Origin: Thermoproteota archaeon
Lineage (GTDB): Archaea > Thermoproteota > Nitrososphaeria > Nitrososphaerales > Nitrososphaeraceae
Direction of reading: 5' to 3'
Assembly: GCA_046724555.1 (NCBI GenBank)
Contig: JBKOWU010000017.1
Coordinates: forward strand, 229 to 64,228
DNA length: 64,000 bases
A model generated the notes under the pieces. That model was not told the origin of the DNA. It ran no database searches and saw only the letters and a program-made list of their open reading frames with translations. Positions 36,699-46,592 of the stretch are shown piece by piece. The position numbers and the translations under genes are program-made. Position 1 is the first letter of the stretch. Every line of letters starts with the position of its first letter.

Positions 36699-37343
36699 TT
36701 ATTTTGCCATAATCTTAAATGAATCAATCATCTTTTGTACAGTTGGCAAGTATGTTGTATAGAGAGGCTTCAGCTCTGTATAGGAAATAGAATAGGCTTT
36801 CTTGTCCTTTACTGTCCATATATTCATAGACTGAAAGTGCGCTTGCACGGCAGGATCTTGGCTGAGGAAGGTGTAGACCATCTTATACGCAGAATCACCT
36901 GCTATGCTCGAGTTAGGATTAGATTCAATAATTTGAAAGTCGGGCAAAGACCGTTTCACACTGTCAAGGAGGCCAGTTACATACTGGCTAGCGGCATCAG
37001 CAGATATATTTTGATTTAGACCCTCAACGGACATGCTAACTGTTGCAGGAAATGCGCTAGCGTTATTGTTATTGAAGGGAGATATGAAATTAACCCAAAA
37101 TCTGTTTGCACTAAGCTGTTCAGTTTTTTGCCAACTTGCAGGATATAGGATTTTTATTCCATGTGCAGGATTTTCGTATGTAATGAAATTGTTATTGTTG
37201 TTGTTATTATTAACAATTACACCATTTTTTTGGTGAGCATGGCCCTGGGCTAATGCTAATTGTACGGGGATTTGAAGAAATAGTGAAAATAGTGAAAGAA
37301 CGACTAGTGTAGTAATTATCTTCAAATCATATTTGTTGTTCAT
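36699..37343 (-). CDS. secreted PsbP/Mog1-fold-like domain protein with poly-Asn tract
   Basis: A signal peptide is followed by N9, then GIKILYPASWQK...KAYSISYTELKPLYTTYLPTVQKMIDSFKI. It is a paralogue of 33763..34713. Confidence 0.55.
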   Translation of the reverse strand: MNNKYDLKIITTLVVLSLFSLFLQIPVQLALAQGHAHQKNGVIVNNNNNNNNFITYENPAHGIKILYPASWQKTEQLSANRFWVNFISPFNNNNASAFPATVSMSVEGLNQNISADAASQYVTGLLDSVKRSLPDFQIIESNPNSSIAGDSAYKMVYTFLSQDPAVQAHFQSMNIWTVKDKKAYSISYTELKPLYTTYLPTVQKMIDSFKIMAK

Positions 37344-38242: not shown

Positions 38243-39952
38243 ATGGCTTCTGCGGAGCAAATACTGCGTGACGGAGCAACAAGAACACAAGGGGAGCAAG
38301 CTCGTAGATACAATTTTCTTGCAGCTAGACTAATCGCAGATCTTATCAAAAGTTCTTTTGGTCCACGTGGTTTAGAAAAAATATTTATCGACATTTTGGG
38401 AGAAGTTACCTTAACAAAGGATGGAGCAACTCTCTTGCGTAAAATAGACGTTGAACATCCTGCCGCCAAAGTAATAATAGAAGCATCAAACGCTGTAGAT
38501 AACGAAGTTGGTGATGGTACTACATCCGTAGTAATTTTGGCAGGAGCTCTTATCGAAAAAGCAGAGGAGTTGCTAGATTTGAACATTGGTCCTTCTATAA
38601 TTGCTGATGGATATCTTGAAGGTCTACAAGCGTCGCTAAGAATCCTAGACGGAATATCAAAGACAATAAAAAATACTGACAGACTAGCCATGGAAGCACT
38701 TGTAAATACTTGTCTGGAATCAAAAGCAATATCTTATATTGCGGATAAAAAAAGTTTGATTACAAGGTGTATAGTCGATGCTGTACGCCTTGTTGCAGAC
38801 TTTTCGAATAGCAAAATGGAAATTAATGATATAAAAATTGAAGAAAAAATTGGCAACACCTCTGATATGGAGCTTATTGAAGGTGTAGTTCTTGATAAGA
38901 CGATAGACAATTCTGCAATGGCCAGGGTTACCAATAATGCCAAAATACTTCTAATAAACGAAGAACTTGAACGTAAAAGGACAAAAGCAGAAGCAGAGAT
39001 CCAAATTAGTTCGCCTGACCAACTGAGTTTGTATTTTGATAATGAGTCGTTGGCTATTAGATTGAAGGTTGAGAATATTATAAATTCAGGAGCCAACGTC
39101 GTAATTTCACAACGAGGAATAGGTAATTTAGCACAATCTCATTTAACCAATGCAGGAATTGTTTCGGTCAGAAGGGTAAAAGAGATTGATATGCTATGGA
39201 TTGAAAAGTCTACTGGCGCCAAGACAATCAACGATCTGAGTAATATAGCAAAAAGCGATCTTGGATTTGCTGGTATTGTCTCAGAAAAAATTATCGGAGA
39301 TGACAAGATGGTATTTATCGAAGAATGCAAGAACCCCAAATCTGTAACGCTCTTACTTCGAGCCAATTCAAAAAGACTCTTAGACGAGTACCATCGATCT
39401 GTTTTGGATGGAATATCAGTGCTAAATGATTTTATTGCAAAGCCAACAGTTGTTGCAGGTGGTGGATCGGCCGAGGCCATTATTGCATCTAGGATGAGAC
39501 GAAATGCATATTCGATCGGCAGTAGAAAGCAAATTGTACTTCTGAAGTTTGCTGATGCTCTCGAAGAAATTCCTTTGACTATTGCAAGAAATGCAGGTAT
39601 GAATGAAATAGATACTCTTACACAACTTAGACTAAAATATGCTGATAAGGTCCCCTCTAAAAATTATAAGTTAAATTGGTATGGGGTTAACCCAATAGAA
39701 CGGAAAATAGAGGAAATGCTGTCCAATAAGATCATTGAACCATCCATTGTAAAAGAACAAGTCCTGAAGACAGCAGTAGAAGTTACCAATCTTTTGGTTC
39801 GTGTAGATGATGTTTTGATGGCAAAGCCTACTATGCAAACTCACACTCACGATGATGGTACGAGGCATTCGCATGCTGGAGGCGACAAGAAGCATGATCA
39901 TTATTTCGATAGGTTAGGAAAAAAACAACGTCCTATGCATCACTATTATTAG
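38243..39952 (+). CDS. ths: thermosome subunit (group II chaperonin) with His-rich C-terminal tail
   Basis: Contains GPRGLEKI, LTKDGATLLRKIDVEHPAAK, NEVGDGTTSVVILAG and VVAGGGSAEA. The tail THTHDDGTRHSHAGGDKKHDHY...MHHYY replaces the usual Gly/Met-rich end. Confidence 0.93.
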   Translation: MASAEQILRDGATRTQGEQARRYNFLAARLIADLIKSSFGPRGLEKIFIDILGEVTLTKDGATLLRKIDVEHPAAKVIIEASNAVDNEVGDGTTSVVILAGALIEKAEELLDLNIGPSIIADGYLEGLQASLRILDGISKTIKNTDRLAMEALVNTCLESKAISYIADKKSLITRCIVDAVRLVADFSNSKMEINDIKIEEKIGNTSDMELIEGVVLDKTIDNSAMARVTNNAKILLINEELERKRTKAEAEIQISSPDQLSLYFDNESLAIRLKVENIINSGANVVISQRGIGNLAQSHLTNAGIVSVRRVKEIDMLWIEKSTGAKTINDLSNIAKSDLGFAGIVSEKIIGDDKMVFIEECKNPKSVTLLLRANSKRLLDEYHRSVLDGISVLNDFIAKPTVVAGGGSAEAIIASRMRRNAYSIGSRKQIVLLKFADALEEIPLTIARNAGMNEIDTLTQLRLKYADKVPSKNYKLNWYGVNPIERKIEEMLSNKIIEPSIVKEQVLKTAVEVTNLLVRVDDVLMAKPTMQTHTHDDGTRHSHAGGDKKHDHYFDRLGKKQRPMHHYY

Positions 39953-40181
39953 TTATCTCAGCTTAACACTAAGCCATGATAACAATGATAGTACTACTCC
40001 ATACTGATAGTGTCACAGTCAGTATAGCTGCTATCGTAGTTATCAGCTGTTATTATGATAACTATTACTGTAGTCCAGATAGAAAAAGAAGAGGACAAGT
40101 TGCAAATGTCGTACTATGCATTTACGGTTTTACCAACTGAAGGTTTCTTCTTCGGTTGTTCTTTATCTTGTGTGTATTTTA

Positions 40182-40586
40182 TCAGCCTTGTGGTAATAAT
40201 ACGTATTTGCATGGAGGGAAAGGACAATCAATATTTATCATCTCTTTTCGCACACTGTTATTATTATTATCAATTCTTATTTCAAACGTAATCTTCTTTA
40301 GACATTCTGGTACTCCTATCATAACCTGATCGACTGAGAGGACTTTTCTAGCATTACCTTTAATGCTTTTTATTGGTTTGTTGGCACGCAACTGCTCAAC
40401 TACGTATGCCAAGTAAATCATCAGACACTCATGAATGTTAATTCTAAGATTTTTAGAAAGCCTTTGCCTAATCATTTCTATAGCTTCAAAAAATATTGAT
40501 TCATCAGATTCGTCAGCATATTCAAAATGTCTTGTAAAAGGAGGGATATCGTCCTCTCCTTTGATTAGTGCTTTAACATAGATCAT
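40182..40586 (-). CDS. urease gamma subunit (UreA)-like protein, orphan, with N- and C-terminal extensions
   Basis: QRLSKNLRINIHECLMIYLAYVVEQLRANKPIKSIKGNARKVLSVDQVMIGVPECLKKITFEIRID...INIDCP aligns by eye with the UreA consensus RRLARGLKLNYPE.VALIS..I.EGARDGK.V..LM..G..VLT.EQVMEGVPEMI..IQVEATFPDG.KLVTVH.P. Its ATG overlaps the upstream gene's TGA (ATGA at 40586..40583). Confidence 0.7.
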   Translation of the reverse strand: MIYVKALIKGEDDIPPFTRHFEYADESDESIFFEAIEMIRQRLSKNLRINIHECLMIYLAYVVEQLRANKPIKSIKGNARKVLSVDQVMIGVPECLKKITFEIRIDNNNNSVRKEMINIDCPFPPCKYVLLPQG

Positions 40587-41704
40587 TTTTGTCTTTTGGG
40601 CGGCTTGGCTTTCGGACCTTTACCAAAGTCGTAAGTATGTCCTGTTCCTCTGTAAAATTTGGGTCTTACAGGCTTGCCCTCCATTTGTCCCTTCTTTGTT
40701 AAAGACAGTCCGGCCAACAACTCAATAATGAGTCTATTAGCTAACCCTGAGGTGATTCCACCGTTGTAAGAATTTTGATCGCTAACATCGTAGTTCGGTG
40801 CAACTTCGACAAGATCGAAAGCAAATCTATCAGGATCGAATGATGTAGACAGCAGTCGCATTAATTTCATTCCTTCTCTAGAAGTTAATCCATTTGGCTC
40901 CGGCTCACCTGTACCAGGGGCATATGCAGGATCAAAGGTGTCTATATCCCAACTTATATAAACTGCATCCACATTGTCATTTGCCCGGTCCGCAGCTTCC
41001 TTTGCAATTTGGTCAATTCCTAATTCCTCTACGTCAAGCATAGTGAACCACTGGAAGTCCTGATCTGCCATCCATTTGTACAAATCTGGACCCGGCCAAT
41101 AGCCACGTGGGCCAATGAGTGTATAATTTTTGCCCTTAAGACAACCCAACTCCATAATCCTTCGAATATGAGCACCATGATCGTATTTGAAACCACACAA
41201 TCCTTGCGGAGCACAATCGGCATGAGTGTCAATATGTATCATCCCAATATTCTTATACTTTTTAGCAAATGCTCTAACATTTGCGAATGTAATAGAATGA
41301 TCGCCGCCAAGCATAACTGGAATGCCGTCAATATCAAGCACCTCTTTTACTTTTTTTGTCATTCTGGTGTGGGATTCTATAACATCACCCGGAGATACGA
41401 CTACATCTCCATAATCAACGGTCCGAAAAACTCCGAACGGATCCACACCGGTTTCAATATTAAAGTGCTCATAGGGTGGAGAGGGCACCGTTGATGCTGC
41501 TCTTATTGCTCTTGGCCCATATCTTGCTCCGGGACGAATAGTAGTACCAAAGTCAAATGGCTCGCCAATTACAGCCACGTCTGGTTTAACTCTCTTTAAT
41601 TCTTCAACGGTTCTAAGCCATGGTAATTTAAGAAATGTTGGTATGCCTACGAAAATCGGTTCGTCGTTGCTTTTATAAGAATCACCATAAAATTCCATTC
41701 CCAT
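40583..41704 (-). CDS. arginase-family ureohydrolase (agmatinase / guanidino-acid hydrolase-like)
   Basis: The metal-ligand motifs are intact: GGDHSIT, HIDTHADC, SWDIDTFDP and DLVEVAPNYD. A basic C-terminal extension follows (GKGPKAKPPKRQK). Confidence 0.88.
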   Translation of the reverse strand: MGMEFYGDSYKSNDEPIFVGIPTFLKLPWLRTVEELKRVKPDVAVIGEPFDFGTTIRPGARYGPRAIRAASTVPSPPYEHFNIETGVDPFGVFRTVDYGDVVVSPGDVIESHTRMTKKVKEVLDIDGIPVMLGGDHSITFANVRAFAKKYKNIGMIHIDTHADCAPQGLCGFKYDHGAHIRRIMELGCLKGKNYTLIGPRGYWPGPDLYKWMADQDFQWFTMLDVEELGIDQIAKEAADRANDNVDAVYISWDIDTFDPAYAPGTGEPEPNGLTSREGMKLMRLLSTSFDPDRFAFDLVEVAPNYDVSDQNSYNGGITSGLANRLIIELLAGLSLTKKGQMEGKPVRPKFYRGTGHTYDFGKGPKAKPPKRQK

Positions 41705-41754
41705 AGTATATCTACTCTAATTAAAGATAACACGTGTTTCTTAAATATTGCTAG

Positions 41755-41768
41755 GTAATTTACGTTTT
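41755..41768 (+). promoter_or_regulatory. copy 1 of 14-nt motif GTAATTTACGTTTT in divergent promoter region
   Basis: Read directly from the sequence. It lies ~50 bp upstream of the ureohydrolase start codon. Confidence 0.45.
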
Positions 41769-41827
41769 CTAGGAAGCAAATTTGGTGTATTATTTCCTCG
41801 TAAACACATTGTAAAAATCTGATTAAG

Positions 41828-41841
41828 GTAATTTACATTTT
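41828..41841 (+). promoter_or_regulatory. copy 2 of motif (GTAATTTACATTTT)
   Basis: Read directly. Same orientation, 73 bp from copy 1, also preceded by G (GGTAATTTAC). Confidence 0.45.
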
Positions 41842-42033
41842 GTTGTATAGAATTGGTAGATAAAAAAATTGCAATAAAATGAATTGCTATGTACTAACTC
41901 CTAGAGTTTTTCTTTTCAAAATTCCAATTGTAACCTGGGATTATCTGGATACGAGAGTCCATAAGGTAATCATTATTTTTGGAGCTTGAATGAACATGTG
42001 TAAACTACGCATACTTTTTTTACCTTTCAATAC

Positions 42034-42047
42034 GTAATTTACATTTT
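42034..42047 (+). promoter_or_regulatory. copy 3 of motif (GTAATTTACATTTT)
   Basis: Read directly. It lies ~45 bp upstream of the symporter TTG start, just 5' of an AATATATATA TATA-like tract (42073..42082). Confidence 0.45.
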
Positions 42048-42091
42048 CTATCTTAAACCTTAATAATTAGCCAATATATATACACGCGACA

Positions 42092-43612
42092 TTGGCTGGG
42101 CTAGATGGCTATGGGATAGCCGTTATTGCATTTTTAGCACTTTCGCTTATTGTAGGAACGTTAACATCTAGACTAGTGAAAAAAAGTAGCAAAAGATACA
42201 TGATAGCAGGAAAGAGTCTTCCACTTTTCTTTGTTGGAACTATGCTAGCAGCTCAGTCAATTGACGGAAATTCATCCTTAGGCAATGTCTCGCTTGTTTA
42301 TCAGTTTGGTTTTTGGGCGGGGGCAGCAATTCCTATTGGACTAGGGATATGTCTCGTACTTACAGGTACTATCTATGCAAACAAATTAAACAAAATGGCT
42401 ATGCTTACGTTACCAGACTTTTATTATAGAAGATATGGAAATGGTGCGGAAGGTATTTCGGCGGTCCTGATGATGATAAGTTTTATTGTCCTCGTTGCAG
42501 GGAACTTTGCTGCATCAGGTTTTATTCTCTCATCCGTTTTTCATATTGATTTTATCTGGGCAATGCTTATAGCGGCTATAGTTGTATTAATTTACACATA
42601 CGCAGGAGGTCTTTTCTCCTCTGCATACACTGATATCTTCCAGATCTATCTTGCAATTGGTGCGTTTTGGGCTGCCTTTATTTTCTTTGCAGGTGGTTTC
42701 TCTGGTGTTAATTTTGGCACGATACTTGGAAGTGCTCCTCCAGGATATTTGGATCTATCTGGTTTGACTAACATTGGGAATGGGGCACTCACTAATTGGG
42801 CGTCAATAATGGCATTGGGGTTAGGAGATATTGTCGCATTGGATTTTATGGAACGAGTCTTTGCTGCAAAAGATGGAAAGACTGCAAAGCGAGGTGCATT
42901 AATGGGTGCTGGTTTAACATTTCTAACTGTAATCCCAACGAGTATGATGGGAATAGTCGCGTTATATCTGTTGCCTAAATTAGCCGATCCCTTTACAGCG
43001 TACCCAGACCTGGCCATTAATCACGTGCCTTTTCCTATCGGTGCAGCCTTGCTGATGGGGGTCCTCGGCGCTTCCATGTCCACAGCAAATGGAGGTCTGC
43101 TTGCCATATCCAGTGTAATGTCGAGGAATGTAATACAACGAGACATACTCCGGAGAATGCTAAAAAAACCCGGGCTAGACGACAGGAGGTTGCTGCTTAC
43201 AACTCGTCTGTTCTCTATACCTATGATGATAGCAGCTTTTGTTCTGGGTTATATTATACCTCAACCTGGCGTTTACCTCATTTTAGCTTTTGATATTGTG
43301 TTTGCCGGTGCCTGGGCCCCTTTAACCTTAGGTTTGTTCTGGAAGAAGGCAAACATGCCTGCTGCGCTGGCATCGCTGATAGTCGGATCAGCTATAAGAC
43401 TACTCATGTTCTTTATCATACCTTCAGGGCTAGCGGGGTTGGATACAATGATACCGCCAGTAATATCTACTGCACTGTTTATAGGGGTAGCACTTGCGAC
43501 TCAAAATAAATATCCTGGTAGGCCAGGTGTAATTAATTACGTCCCTCCAGAAGAAGATGTAATCAGAGGACAAGACCTTAAAGGATATGCAGATAATAGA
43601 GCATATAAATAG
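42092..43612 (+). CDS. sodium:solute symporter (SSS) family transporter
   Basis: A 506-aa ORF with ~13 hydrophobic segments. N-terminal YMIAGKSLPLFFVGTMLAAQSIDGNSSLG and mid-protein motifs are typical of SSS (PutP/PanF/DUR3 superfamily). The start is TTG. Confidence 0.85.
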   Translation: MAGLDGYGIAVIAFLALSLIVGTLTSRLVKKSSKRYMIAGKSLPLFFVGTMLAAQSIDGNSSLGNVSLVYQFGFWAGAAIPIGLGICLVLTGTIYANKLNKMAMLTLPDFYYRRYGNGAEGISAVLMMISFIVLVAGNFAASGFILSSVFHIDFIWAMLIAAIVVLIYTYAGGLFSSAYTDIFQIYLAIGAFWAAFIFFAGGFSGVNFGTILGSAPPGYLDLSGLTNIGNGALTNWASIMALGLGDIVALDFMERVFAAKDGKTAKRGALMGAGLTFLTVIPTSMMGIVALYLLPKLADPFTAYPDLAINHVPFPIGAALLMGVLGASMSTANGGLLAISSVMSRNVIQRDILRRMLKKPGLDDRRLLLTTRLFSIPMMIAAFVLGYIIPQPGVYLILAFDIVFAGAWAPLTLGLFWKKANMPAALASLIVGSAIRLLMFFIIPSGLAGLDTMIPPVISTALFIGVALATQNKYPGRPGVINYVPPEEDVIRGQDLKGYADNRAYK

Positions 43613-43723
43613 TAAGTTAATGAAGATCTCATCTTGCATTTAAAAAAACTAAATAACAATACTCGTAACGACAAACTCTATGCCAACTAGGGGGTATTCT
43701 ACGATTGGCCTTTCTTACAAGCC

Positions 43724-43900
43724 ATGAATGAGATAAAGCGTGGTTATTACGAAGTTGGAATATATAATGTAAAGTTAGACTTTTCAGGACAATATACATC
43801 ATTGACTCCGAGATCAGACGTAAAGACATGGCTAGAGGATAATCATAAGAAATTGGCAGGTGAATATGAGGGAAAATATAAAATAAGAAGTTTCGCGTAG
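43724..43900 (+). CDS. 58-aa hypothetical protein (below ORF-track cutoff)
   Basis: ATG..TAG frame MNEIKRGYYEVGIYNVKLDFSGQYTSLTPRSDVKTWLEDNHKKLAGEYEGKYKIRSFA. It looks more protein-like than the listed antisense ORF 43629..43829. Confidence 0.3.
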   Translation: MNEIKRGYYEVGIYNVKLDFSGQYTSLTPRSDVKTWLEDNHKKLAGEYEGKYKIRSFA

Positions 43901-44230
43901 TTTGCGTGAGTATTCATGCTCAATATGTTTGAATCCAAGCCTGCTACTCGAAATTATGTTATCCAACTAAAAGAATCTGATTTCCATTGGCTTGAAGATG
44001 AGTATAAAAAGAGGAAACAACAATAGAAGGGACTTAATTATGTTTGTTAGTTCAAACAATTCGCCAGTATTTTTTGAAAAGAGTTATTAGAAAGGATTAA
44101 TACAGCAAAAAAAATTCTGACTTTGTAGCGTTATTGATGCTTGTTATTACTCAAAATGAAATATCAAAAATATCTTTGTATTATACATCTGATTAGTATG
44201 CTATATATGTTTGATATCAATAAGAGTATT

Positions 44231-44722
44231 TTAACGCATTACTAGAACAGGGCATTTGGAATTCTTAACTACTCCGTCGGCTACACTCCCACCAATTATC
44301 AAGTATTTTTTAGATAAATCTCCTCCACCGATGACAATAATATCAACATCGTTTTTGTTAGCATATTGAGTTATATCTTTGACCACCGACCTCCCATGTG
44401 AATATATTATCTCACCTTTCATATTTACGCCTCTTTTCTTGGCTTCTTCTTCCACTGGTCTCATTACTTGTTCCGCGGAATCCTTCTTTGTTTTTCTGAA
44501 TCCTTCAACCATCTTCACATCTCCATATTTTGCCCGTAGAGCTATAGCACCTCCTCCTTTTACATCCTCCACAATATGGAGTACAACTAATTCCTTAGCG
44601 TTCTCTATCTCTGCAAGATGTATAGCGTAATTGGCTGCTTTCCTAGATAGTGAAGTCGTATCAATAGGAACAAGTATCTTGTCAATAGACAGAAGTGTTG
44701 TATTATTGCCGTTCTTGTTCAT
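44231..44722 (-). CDS. universal stress protein (UspA family)
   Basis: KILVPIDTTSLSRKAANYAIHLA ... DIIVIGGGDLSKKYLIIGGSVADGVVKNSKCPVLVM. Confidence 0.85.
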   Translation of the reverse strand: MNKNGNNTTLLSIDKILVPIDTTSLSRKAANYAIHLAEIENAKELVVLHIVEDVKGGGAIALRAKYGDVKMVEGFRKTKKDSAEQVMRPVEEEAKKRGVNMKGEIIYSHGRSVVKDITQYANKNDVDIIVIGGGDLSKKYLIIGGSVADGVVKNSKCPVLVMR

Positions 44723-45650: not shown

Positions 45651-46592
45651 TCAGCCGTACATTATACCTTGCCTAACGTGCGTTTCCCCCTGCGCTTGCT
45701 GTTGTTGTTGTTGCTGCTGCTGATATTGCTGCGCTTGCTGTTCGCGTATTGATCGCATTATTTCTTCCATCCTACGTTTTACGTTCGCTCCTTGTTCTCT
45801 AAGTTGTTGGGTATCTATTTTCAAAGTTTGATCATTTGTTGTCTTAGCAACTGATTCTAATAGAATTGCAGCTCCTTCTGGATCGGGTATCCCACTGCTT
45901 GCAAGTACAAGCAGAGCCTTACATGCAATACCATTCGATAGACAGGCAGATAGCAATCCTCCAGCTATTCCTCCGATAAATGCAGTATTAGCATAAAACG
46001 GTCCGCTATCTGCTCCTTCTTGTTGATTTTTATTAGCAATATTAATGCTGCCGTCATCATGAAGCAGATTAGCGGCATCTGCTGATTTGCCATCGCTTGA
46101 CAATATCATAGGCGTTCTTTTTGAATCAGGCAAACCTTCTACTGCGATACCGTCTAGTACCACAACCTCCTTTACTCTGTTATCCAAGCCCCACTTCATG
46201 ACTGTGTTTAGAACAGAGTACATTCCTTGAATCATGATAGGAGCTTCGCAAACTAATACACAAACATTTCCTTCCTTATTTGAATACAAACGAAACGGAT
46301 GCCTGAGTTTTCCTCCAACATAAATGACACCCGGTGCTATATGCTCTGATTCGACACAGGCTATCTGATACATATCCAACTTGTCTATGATATAGCTTGT
46401 GCTTATTGATCCTACCAAGCCCGGGCCCGGAAAACCAGCAATTAGAATAGGGGCATTCAACTTCTTGTTCCTTTGTATGACTTTAGATAATGGCTTTACC
46501 CTAGTTTTGCTTTCAAAGATGCGATCGTTGTCTATATCCCTATGAGCTGTAGCAATTGTTTTTCCTGCGATTCTAGTTATTTGTCTTGCCAA
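45651..46592 (-). CDS. PAC2-family (proteasome assembly chaperone-like) protein with poly-Gln tail
   Basis: PILIAGFPGPGLVGSISTSYIIDKL near the N-terminus is typical of archaeal PAC2 proteins. The C-terminus has QQAQQYQQQQQQQQQAQ. Confidence 0.7.
   Translation of the reverse strand: MARQITRIAGKTIATAHRDIDNDRIFESKTRVKPLSKVIQRNKKLNAPILIAGFPGPGLVGSISTSYIIDKLDMYQIACVESEHIAPGVIYVGGKLRHPFRLYSNKEGNVCVLVCEAPIMIQGMYSVLNTVMKWGLDNRVKEVVVLDGIAVEGLPDSKRTPMILSSDGKSADAANLLHDDGSINIANKNQQEGADSGPFYANTAFIGGIAGGLLSACLSNGIACKALLVLASSGIPDPEGAAILLESVAKTTNDQTLKIDTQQLREQGANVKRRMEEIMRSIREQQAQQYQQQQQQQQQAQGETHVRQGIMYG

Follow-up and report, generated by a model that had tools for sequence, protein, structure and literature searches.

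An arginase-family ureohydrolase paired with a urease gamma-like protein in ammonia-oxidising archaea

Introduction

What might a protein that resembles the small gamma subunit of urease (UreA) do directly behind the gene of an arginase-family hydrolase, in a stretch of DNA that holds no urease genes? The question is raised by a contig of a Nitrososphaeraceae archaeon (GenBank assembly GCA_046724555.1, contig JBKOWU010000017.1, positions 229 to 64,228), whose 64,000 nucleotides we refer to as the window; its GC content is ~37%, and its nearest relatives are metagenome-assembled genomes (MAGs) of Nitrososphaeraceae. Within urease, UreA is not known to take part in catalysis or to handle metal; it spans neighbouring catalytic subunits of the trimer, and to our knowledge it is regarded as a structural subunit of urease only. 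Arginase-family enzymes are trimers or hexamers.

The two genes encode a 373-aa ureohydrolase (hereafter ARG) and a 134-aa UreA-like protein (UreAL), and a gene for a sodium:solute symporter (SSS) carrier lies divergently beside them. The initial annotation had described this arrangement and had proposed that a UreA-derived subunit was recruited as a partner of the ureohydrolase, in a module that would turn guanidino compounds into urea and feed nitrification. It missed two aspects that are treated below, a possible link to nickel and a likely origin of the pair in an operon.

Papers on ammonia-oxidising archaea (AOA) annotate ARG as agmatinase or SpeB (PMC11131427; PMC6790972; PMC10753782), and most AOA are reported to carry two to three speB copies per genome (PMC10753782). 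A comammox study reported AOA to be without guanidine-degradation genes (PMC11410670). The literature that we searched contains no description of a UreAL-type protein next to the archaeal ‘agmatinase’, only the remark that SSS carriers and agmatinase genes cluster in AOA (PMC11131427). As set out below, the pairing points to an undescribed two-protein ureohydrolase, and possibly to an unrecognised nitrogen substrate of AOA.

Results

UreAL resembles urease gamma subunits in sequence and predicted fold

The likeness of UreAL to urease gamma subunits, initially drawn by eye, was borne out by profile searches. Residues 26-107 match positions 7-88 of the 99 positions in the Pfam profile Urease_gamma (E 1.1e-9; 38.9 bits against a gathering cut-off of 23.9), and the profile of the UreAL family finds UreA of K. 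aerogenes (1a5k) with an E-value of 2e-12. Nevertheless, UreAL is only 20-25% identical to genuine UreA and scores far below the NCBIfam equivalog cut-offs for that subunit (PRK13241, 40.1 against 123; TIGR00193, 36.7 against 82.3). Its AlphaFold2 (AF2) model, with a predicted local distance difference test score (pLDDT) of 87.7 and a predicted template modelling score (pTM) of 0.83, shows the four-helix plus β-hairpin fold of UreA. A Foldseek search of the PDB with this model returned only urease gamma chains or domains, the top 18 matches all being ureases, and separate gamma chains superposed with target-normalised template modelling (TM) scores of 0.76-0.79 at a probability of 1.0. The alignment with genuine UreA runs end to end over its length of ~100 aa, and UreAL keeps the LxxNxxE and VMxGV motifs. 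Taken together, profiles and model identify UreAL as a true, strongly diverged homologue or paralogue of UreA; like UreA, it is small and presumably non-catalytic.

UreAL differs from UreA by two additions, a 19-aa N-terminal extension, modelled as a β-hairpin that packs on the fold and carries an invariant K-G-E-x-D tip, and an extra C-terminal tail of ~10 aa. An Asn run at residues 107-110 varies in length among relatives. The family comprises 514 clusters at 90% identity; databases name its members ‘urease subunit gamma’, and nearly all of them carry a precomputed PF00547 assignment. In an exhaustive search of representative sequences, matches that cover the N-terminal extension outrank ordinary UreA-type matches, which begin at about target residue 6 and appear only from E ~1e-6 downward. 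UreAL also differs in its genomic position: it always stands behind an arginase-family gene and not ahead of ureB. Where a locus has urease, ureB is preceded by a genuine ureA of its own, so that UreAL coexists with a normal ureA.

The ARG-UreAL pair is kept across two archaeal orders

Direct reading of the sequence confirmed that ARG ends in CAA AAA TGA and that the ATG of UreAL overlaps this stop codon (aaATGAtc). Moreover, a synteny survey found that this pairing is not unique to the genome studied. Loci L001-L039 were recovered through UreAL and include 33 species from a pattern-based scan in which each GTDB species was represented by a single genome (Nitrososphaeraceae, Nitrososphaera, Nitrosarchaeum, Nitrosotenuis, Cenarchaeum and unnamed Nitrosopumilaceae); seven more (L046-L052) were reached from the ARG side, giving 46 loci that carry UreAL. 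ARG or its remnant lies directly upstream of UreAL in all 46, as judged by tblastn wherever the contig reaches, and these loci span the Nitrososphaerales and the Nitrosopumilales. In near relatives, the gene that follows this arginase gene encodes a protein sharing 60-99% identity with UreAL. The junction measures -4 nt or 0 nt in 37 of the 38 loci for which it was measured in the two orders, being ATGA in Nitrososphaeraceae, TTGA in Nitrosopumilaceae and TAAATG (0 nt) in Nitrososphaera. Since the arrangement recurs in every related locus examined, the pairing is far beyond chance.

The divergent SSS gene is part of this picture, with a homologue 70-94% identical near ARG in most AOA loci. Across the AOA orders, identity to the proteins of the window is 82-99% for ARG, 70-78% for SSS and 28-71% for UreAL. 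Among 94 pairs in which dS was not saturated, the ratio of non-synonymous to synonymous substitution rates (dN/dS) had a median of 0.023 in ARG and of 0.29 in UreAL. Purifying selection is thus extreme on ARG and moderate on UreAL, and the value of 0.29 marks UreAL as a real gene under selection. We relied on dN/dS because a comparison with the thermosome (50-57% identity) is a weak yardstick of conservation owing to paralogy.

One locus from a Nitrosotenuis MAG (L019, 4889-6378) has a mosaic appearance: its ARG is 92.7% identical to that of the window, against ~82% in other Nitrosopumilaceae, while the C-terminal end of this ARG and the UreAL of the locus resemble those of Nitrosopumilaceae. 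A likely cause is recombination or transfer within the gene, or else a chimeric bin.

ARG is predicted to be an active ureohydrolase of the guanidinobutyrase/guanidine-hydrolase branch

The canonical metal-binding motifs that had been reported for ARG are present (GGDHS, HIDTHAD, SWDIDTFDP and LVEVAP), and all six ligands of the binuclear metal site, from the His of GGDHS and the D-x-H-x-D and D-x-D motifs (H136, D159, H161, D163, D253 and D255), are invariant in the homologue alignment; with these in place ARG is predicted to be active. Its best PDB matches are 3nio, 9fek, 7esr, 1gq6 and 3nip (E ~1e-43 to 1e-49), and its best solved relatives thereby include a guanidinobutyrase, two guanidine hydrolases, a proclavaminate amidinohydrolase and a guanidinopropionase, whereas solved agmatinases match less well. 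Although SpeB belongs to the same superfamily and likewise releases urea, ARG falls below both agmatinase cut-offs (TIGR01230, 154.4 against 174.3; PRK02190, 200.4 against 302). Judging from these comparisons, ARG sits in the guanidinobutyrase/guanidine-hydrolase branch, closer to these enzymes than to SpeB.

Within this branch, GbuA (3nio) is the top solved match; GbuA and GpuA (3nip) are urea-releasing hydrolases of guanidino acids, and some sources annotate the AOA protein as guanidinobutyrase. The guanidine hydrolases GdmH and comammox guanidinase (7esr, 7oi1, 9fek) are also among the closest solved relatives (E ~1e-49) and have the same metal ligands. Guanidinase is marked by the pocket residues Thr105, His222, Trp313 and Glu344 in N. 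inopinata numbering (PMC11410670). ARG keeps the Thr, His and Glu, but Trp313 aligns with Glu267 (GTGEPEP); at this position guanidinobutyrase has Thr, as do the homologues of the next, more remote tier. Assignment of ARG as a guanidinase was rejected, as the signature Trp is replaced by Glu.

GTG-E-PEP, a STVPSPPYEHFNIETG insert and a YDVSDxxSYNGG insert define a subfamily that ARG shares with haloarchaeal and other non-AOA proteins at 52-62% identity. The two inserts and the Glu in place of Thr after GTG distinguish this AOA, haloarchaeal and bacterial subfamily from GbuA and GpuA. On top of these marks, AOA enzymes have a specific basic C-terminal tail, which in several lineages bears a His-rich extension. 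In the AF2 model of ARG, confidence is lowest at residues 51-80 and 308-315, which correspond to the subfamily inserts (pLDDT <65, and <50 for 308-315); their folding may depend on oligomerisation or on a partner.

Locus contexts suggest an origin in a urease operon

In Nitrosopumilaceae, ARG, UreAL and a NicO-like membrane protein form one co-directional unit with SSS and TPR genes upstream. A urease cluster (ureDGFE/ureABC) follows downstream in L018-L020, L022, L023, L031, L032 and L037, whereas in L026, L028-L030, L034, L038, L046, L048 and L049 the genes downstream are RNaseH-ACS-HpaB and no urease genes are found there. L021 and L047 have no urease cluster at the site and have lost the NicO-like gene as well. 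Across L018-L049, presence or absence of the urease cluster is thus polymorphic at a single chromosomal site, bounded by the NicO-like gene and RNaseH/ACS; both states keep SSS, ARG and UreAL, and the NicO-like gene is kept except in these two loci. In Nitrososphaeraceae, the window included, the pair and SSS lie away from urease and NicO, yet together. The absence of urease genes from the 64-kb window, as noted at the outset, was confirmed by tblastn with ureA-G and ureD queries.

Two loci, L050 (6562-14293) and L051 (3761-11492), bring all of these elements together in one co-directional series, ARG-UreAL-NicO-like-ureA-ureB-ureC-ureE-ureF-ureG-ureD, so that in this lineage UreAL is encoded within a urease operon. 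Here the C-terminal tail of ARG is His-rich, and UreAL is a 110-aa protein without the hairpin, 41% identical to the UreA of its own operon and 28% to UreAL of the window. By sequence it looks like an evolutionary intermediate and suggests that UreAL arose by duplication of ureA in such a cluster.

The pair may also decay as one. Of ARG in L038 (5902-6374) only the first 44 codons are left, and they run in frame into UreAL near its residue 15; a frameshift in turn splits UreAL, whereas the NicO-like gene that follows is undamaged. Either ARG and UreAL have truly decayed together, or the MAG assembly is at fault.

Outside AOA, the Haloquadratum homologue of ARG adjoins an SSF carrier. Two further subfamily members, taken from their gene context to be bacterial (L041 and L043), lie near urease genes, each with ABC importer genes alongside; one is placed directly after ureABCEFGD, the other a few genes downstream of ureGDEF. 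Both the haloarchaeal carrier and the urease and ABC-importer contexts argue for a catabolic, urea-releasing role of ARG on an imported guanidino compound. In L043 (3598-7077), the ARG-subfamily gene comes after genes for nitrile hydratase subunits and an isochorismatase-family protein, between urease accessory genes and the ABC importer; a nitrogen-rich compound may be processed here in several steps.

ARG is probably nickel-dependent

The NicO-like protein, a putative relative of the NiCoT/NicO nickel-cobalt transporters with their HX4DH motif, has a readable HAFEPDH motif (LLHAFEPDH) and a His-rich loop. In L020 it matches the Pfam NicO profile over nearly its full length at 21.4 bits against a cut-off of 27.7, and a faint NicO match was listed for L052. 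The L044 homologue gave no NicO match in Pfam or NCBIfam, and its naming rests on the L020 homologue and the motifs. Nickel dependence of ARG is plausible, and in our view probable, since the NicO-like gene is kept at sites without urease, several ARG tails are His-rich and nickel enzymes are among the nearest solved relatives (PMC11410670).

The intergenic region and neighbouring genes

The features of the locus are collected in Table 1. The SSS carrier aligns over the full SSF domain (profile positions 1-406 of 406), scores below the cut-offs of PutP, PanF and other equivalogs, and is of the type that the AOA literature calls ‘SSS/DUR3-like urea transporter’, urea being a putative cargo here. 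Of four matches to the 9-mer GTAAATTAC in the window, where 0.8 would be expected per 64 kb, three fall inside the 387-bp intergenic region, and the two copies proximal to ARG lie within blocks that are invariant in four relatives. This makes GTAAATTAC a candidate operator or promoter element common to the divergent ARG and SSS genes. An Rfam scan of 39900-44300 detected no riboswitch, its sole match being a sub-threshold snoRNA; a scan for sigma-70 promoters and terminators gave nothing notable, such models not being meaningful for an archaeon.

Table 1. Features of the ARG/UreAL locus and its surroundings, in window coordinates.
Feature	Position	Strand	Evidence or remark
ARG, arginase-family ureohydrolase, 373 aa	40583-41704	(-)	Pfam PF00491 Arginase, E 7.7e-79
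UreA-like protein (UreAL), 134 aa	40182-40586	(-)	Pfam PF00547 Urease_gamma, 38.9 bits
ATGA overlap, ARG stop/UreAL start	40583-40586	(-)	read directly from the sequence
Divergent ARG/SSS intergenic region, 387 bp	41705-42091	.	three GTAAATTAC copies (41755-41763, 41828-41836, 42034-42042)
Sodium:solute symporter (SSS) carrier, 506 aa	42092-43612	(+)	Pfam PF00474 SSF, E 1.1e-29
Remnant of conserved 173-188-aa protein	43691-44116	(+)	tblastn, 45% identity over 142 aa
Thermosome subunit	38243-39952	(+)	His-rich C-terminal tail THTHDDGTRHSHAGGDKKHDH
PsbP-like protein	36699-37343	(-)	poly-Asn run
PAC2-family protein	45651-46592	(-)	poly-Gln run

In relatives, SSS is followed by an uncharacterised protein of 173-188 aa, which in Nitrosopumilaceae lies in the same neighbourhood. 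The window version is broken into open reading frames of 58 and 36 aa, and is probably a pseudogene or the result of a sequencing frameshift; this protein may belong to the ARG/UreAL module. The thermosome gene adjoins the pair and is its conserved neighbour in both orders. Homopolymeric runs occur in two proteins farther out (Table 1).

Discussion

How might a relative of UreA serve an arginase-family enzyme? UreA spans catalytic subunits and the ARG family is oligomeric, so the simplest mechanism is an accessory subunit seated on an oligomer. We tentatively propose that UreAL is a UreA-derived, non-catalytic accessory subunit that is coupled to and binds ARG, itself probably a nickel-dependent hydrolase of a guanidino compound. 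Strict adjacency, start/stop coupling, co-migration with ARG, persistence without adjacent urease genes and the apparent joint decay in L038 all argue that UreAL acts on or with the ureohydrolase. Most likely, UreAL would have arisen by duplication of ureA in an ancestral cluster of ureohydrolase, nickel transporter and ureABC, and would then have become tied to the arginase-family gene and no longer to urease. Start/stop coupling would let it be made in step with ARG, and by analogy with UreA it would bind the ARG trimer or hexamer as an accessory subunit. The SSS carrier would import a guanidino compound, ARG would cleave it to urea and an amine, and the urea would be turned into ammonia where urease exists.

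Candidate contacts are the UreAL hairpin with its invariant acidic tip and the basic C-terminal tail of ARG specific to AOA. Furthermore, at 13 positions of the ARG alignment (ten substitutions, plus three columns with indels) all lineages that have UreAL agree and those without it differ; among them are W29, R31, Y78 and, in the tail, Y358 and F360. These positions are candidate leads for a contact surface.

Several observations weigh against an accessory subunit of this kind. A marine lineage has ARG and the NicO-like gene but no UreAL: in L044 (6001-7917) the NicO-like gene follows ARG directly, and in L045 (8001-9899) the order is ARG-NicO-like-Usp-ureCBA/ureEFGD; the protein cluster of this lineage includes Tara Oceans sequences. 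The partner is therefore dispensable there and not universally required. Since the enzymes without UreAL form a single clade, the discriminating ARG positions are confounded with phylogeny. UreAL evolves ~10 times faster than ARG in close pairs, and its family alignment holds no conserved His or Cys. An AF2 prediction of ARG and UreAL as one fused chain (unpaired alignment, monomer, no oligomer context) reached a pTM of 0.68, about the value for an undocked small domain, with no confident docking and with low confidence for the ARG tail and the UreAL C-terminus; given this set-up, we do not count the outcome as negative. Finally, a deoxyhypusine synthase gene lies within a few kb of ARG in many loci, and a housekeeping role of agmatinase type would likewise be in keeping with so extremely conserved an enzyme.

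With these points taken into account, the proposal of a recruited, UreA-derived partner is partly supported: a diverged homologue in conserved coupling stands, a physical complex would be a prediction, and the partner is not a universal requirement. Two outcomes that the initial annotation had named as fatal to its idea, no significant profile match of UreAL to urease gamma and a pairing confined to one genome, did not arise. The linkage to SSS is likewise supported in most loci. Feeding nitrification by way of urea cannot be the only role of the pair, given that it is kept, usually with the NicO-like gene, at Nitrosopumilaceae loci without a urease cluster at the site.

Among known systems, MfmAB (8snf, 8ryi), which is among the PDB matches of ARG, offers a precedent for a ureohydrolase working with a second, non-catalytic subunit; its partner, however, itself has the arginase fold, whereas the candidate partner of ARG has the urease gamma fold. 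The metformin hydrolase MfmAB is nickel-dependent. For GbuA and GpuA we know of no partner protein. GdmH resembles ARG also in that nickel supply genes lie near ARG in other lineages, but the known helpers of GdmH are HypA/HypB-like and not UreA-like (PMC11410670).

Among alternatives, we consider it improbable that UreAL bridges two enzymes by sitting on urease, or by replacing UreA in some of its protomers, and docking ARG through its hairpin and tail, so that urea is channelled within a metabolon. Such a bridge would fit the position of the pair inside or beside a urease cluster in many Nitrosopumilaceae loci and in L050/L051, the bacterial subfamily members in urease operons, and the alignment of UreAL over the full length of UreA with both motifs kept. 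However, the pair is retained at sites that lack a urease cluster (L021, L026, L028-L030, L034, L046-L049) and is far from urease in the window; L045 has urease and ARG without UreAL, and a genuine ureA always accompanies ureBC.

The chance is similarly small that UreAL is a maturation or metal-loading helper of a nickel ureohydrolase, as an assembly chaperone or nickel-supply adaptor, and not a stable subunit. The co-directional ARG-UreAL-NicO-like unit of Nitrosopumilaceae and the His-rich ARG tails of some lineages would agree with this, as would the related guanidinases, which are nickel enzymes that need helpers in Synechocystis, although no helper is known in comammox (PMC11410670). On the other hand, a metal-handling protein without conserved His or Cys would be unexpected, and the NicO match remains below the Pfam cut-off. 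UreA itself is not known to act on metals. In urease, UreD binds to the alpha and beta parts and leaves the gamma domain untouched (PMC10121161); recruitment of UreDFG would thus not be expected of a protein that mimics UreA, and recruitment of UreD by UreAL was down-weighted on these grounds.

It is quite improbable that UreAL is simply an alternative gamma subunit of urease whose place behind ARG is left over from operon ancestry, without any functional link between the two. UreAL does pass the Pfam Urease_gamma threshold and is annotated as ‘urease subunit gamma’ everywhere, and the L050 intermediate shares 41% identity with UreA, from whose gene it is separated only by the NicO-like gene. 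Yet UreAL is far below the UreA equivalog cut-offs, travels with ARG and not with ureABC in Nitrososphaeraceae, keeps its start/stop coupling to ARG across orders and persists at sites lacking urease; the added hairpin packed on its fold and the absence of UreAL from L045 weaken this explanation further. Very improbable is a housekeeping agmatinase of the polyamine/hypusine route with UreAL as a tolerated relic of little function, which is still favoured by the agmatinase/SpeB annotation in AOA papers (PMC11131427; PMC6790972; PMC10753782), by a deoxyhypusine synthase gene close by and by how extremely conserved ARG is, but which conflicts with the scores of ARG below the agmatinase equivalog cut-offs, its greater closeness to guanidinobutyrase and guanidinase than to solved agmatinases and the two to three speB copies reported for most AOA, and also with UreAL itself, as a relic would not keep a dN/dS of 0.29, an intact frame and start/stop coupling across two orders.

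An accessory subunit of ARG therefore remains our preferred reading of UreAL. Its broadest form, which we regard as unlikely, is that AOA hold a dedicated, nickel-dependent two-protein ureohydrolase with a UreA-derived staple or bridge, fed by the ‘urea-type’ SSS carrier, that uses a guanidino compound so far not considered for AOA as a source of nitrogen or energy and passes urea to urease where present.

What is new here is a UreA-family protein in a new partnership, together with an uncharacterised subfamily of ureohydrolases. The capture of a UreA paralogue by an unrelated hydrolase would, if true, be a clear case of subunit exaptation, with a structural subunit of urease employed for the first time in another setting, and hundreds of archaeal ‘urease subunit gamma’ annotations would then be misleading. 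ARG is among the most conserved proteins in these loci, occurs in soil, freshwater and marine ammonia oxidisers and has been filed as ‘agmatinase’ on annotation alone. That SSS and the NicO-like gene persist with the pair where the urease cluster is absent casts doubt on the customary view that they serve in the uptake of urea and the maturation of urease. Which forms of organic nitrogen AOA can use is under active study, and comammox was recently shown to use guanidine (PMC11410670); for AOA, this locus provides a specific enzyme along with a candidate importer and a candidate source of nickel.

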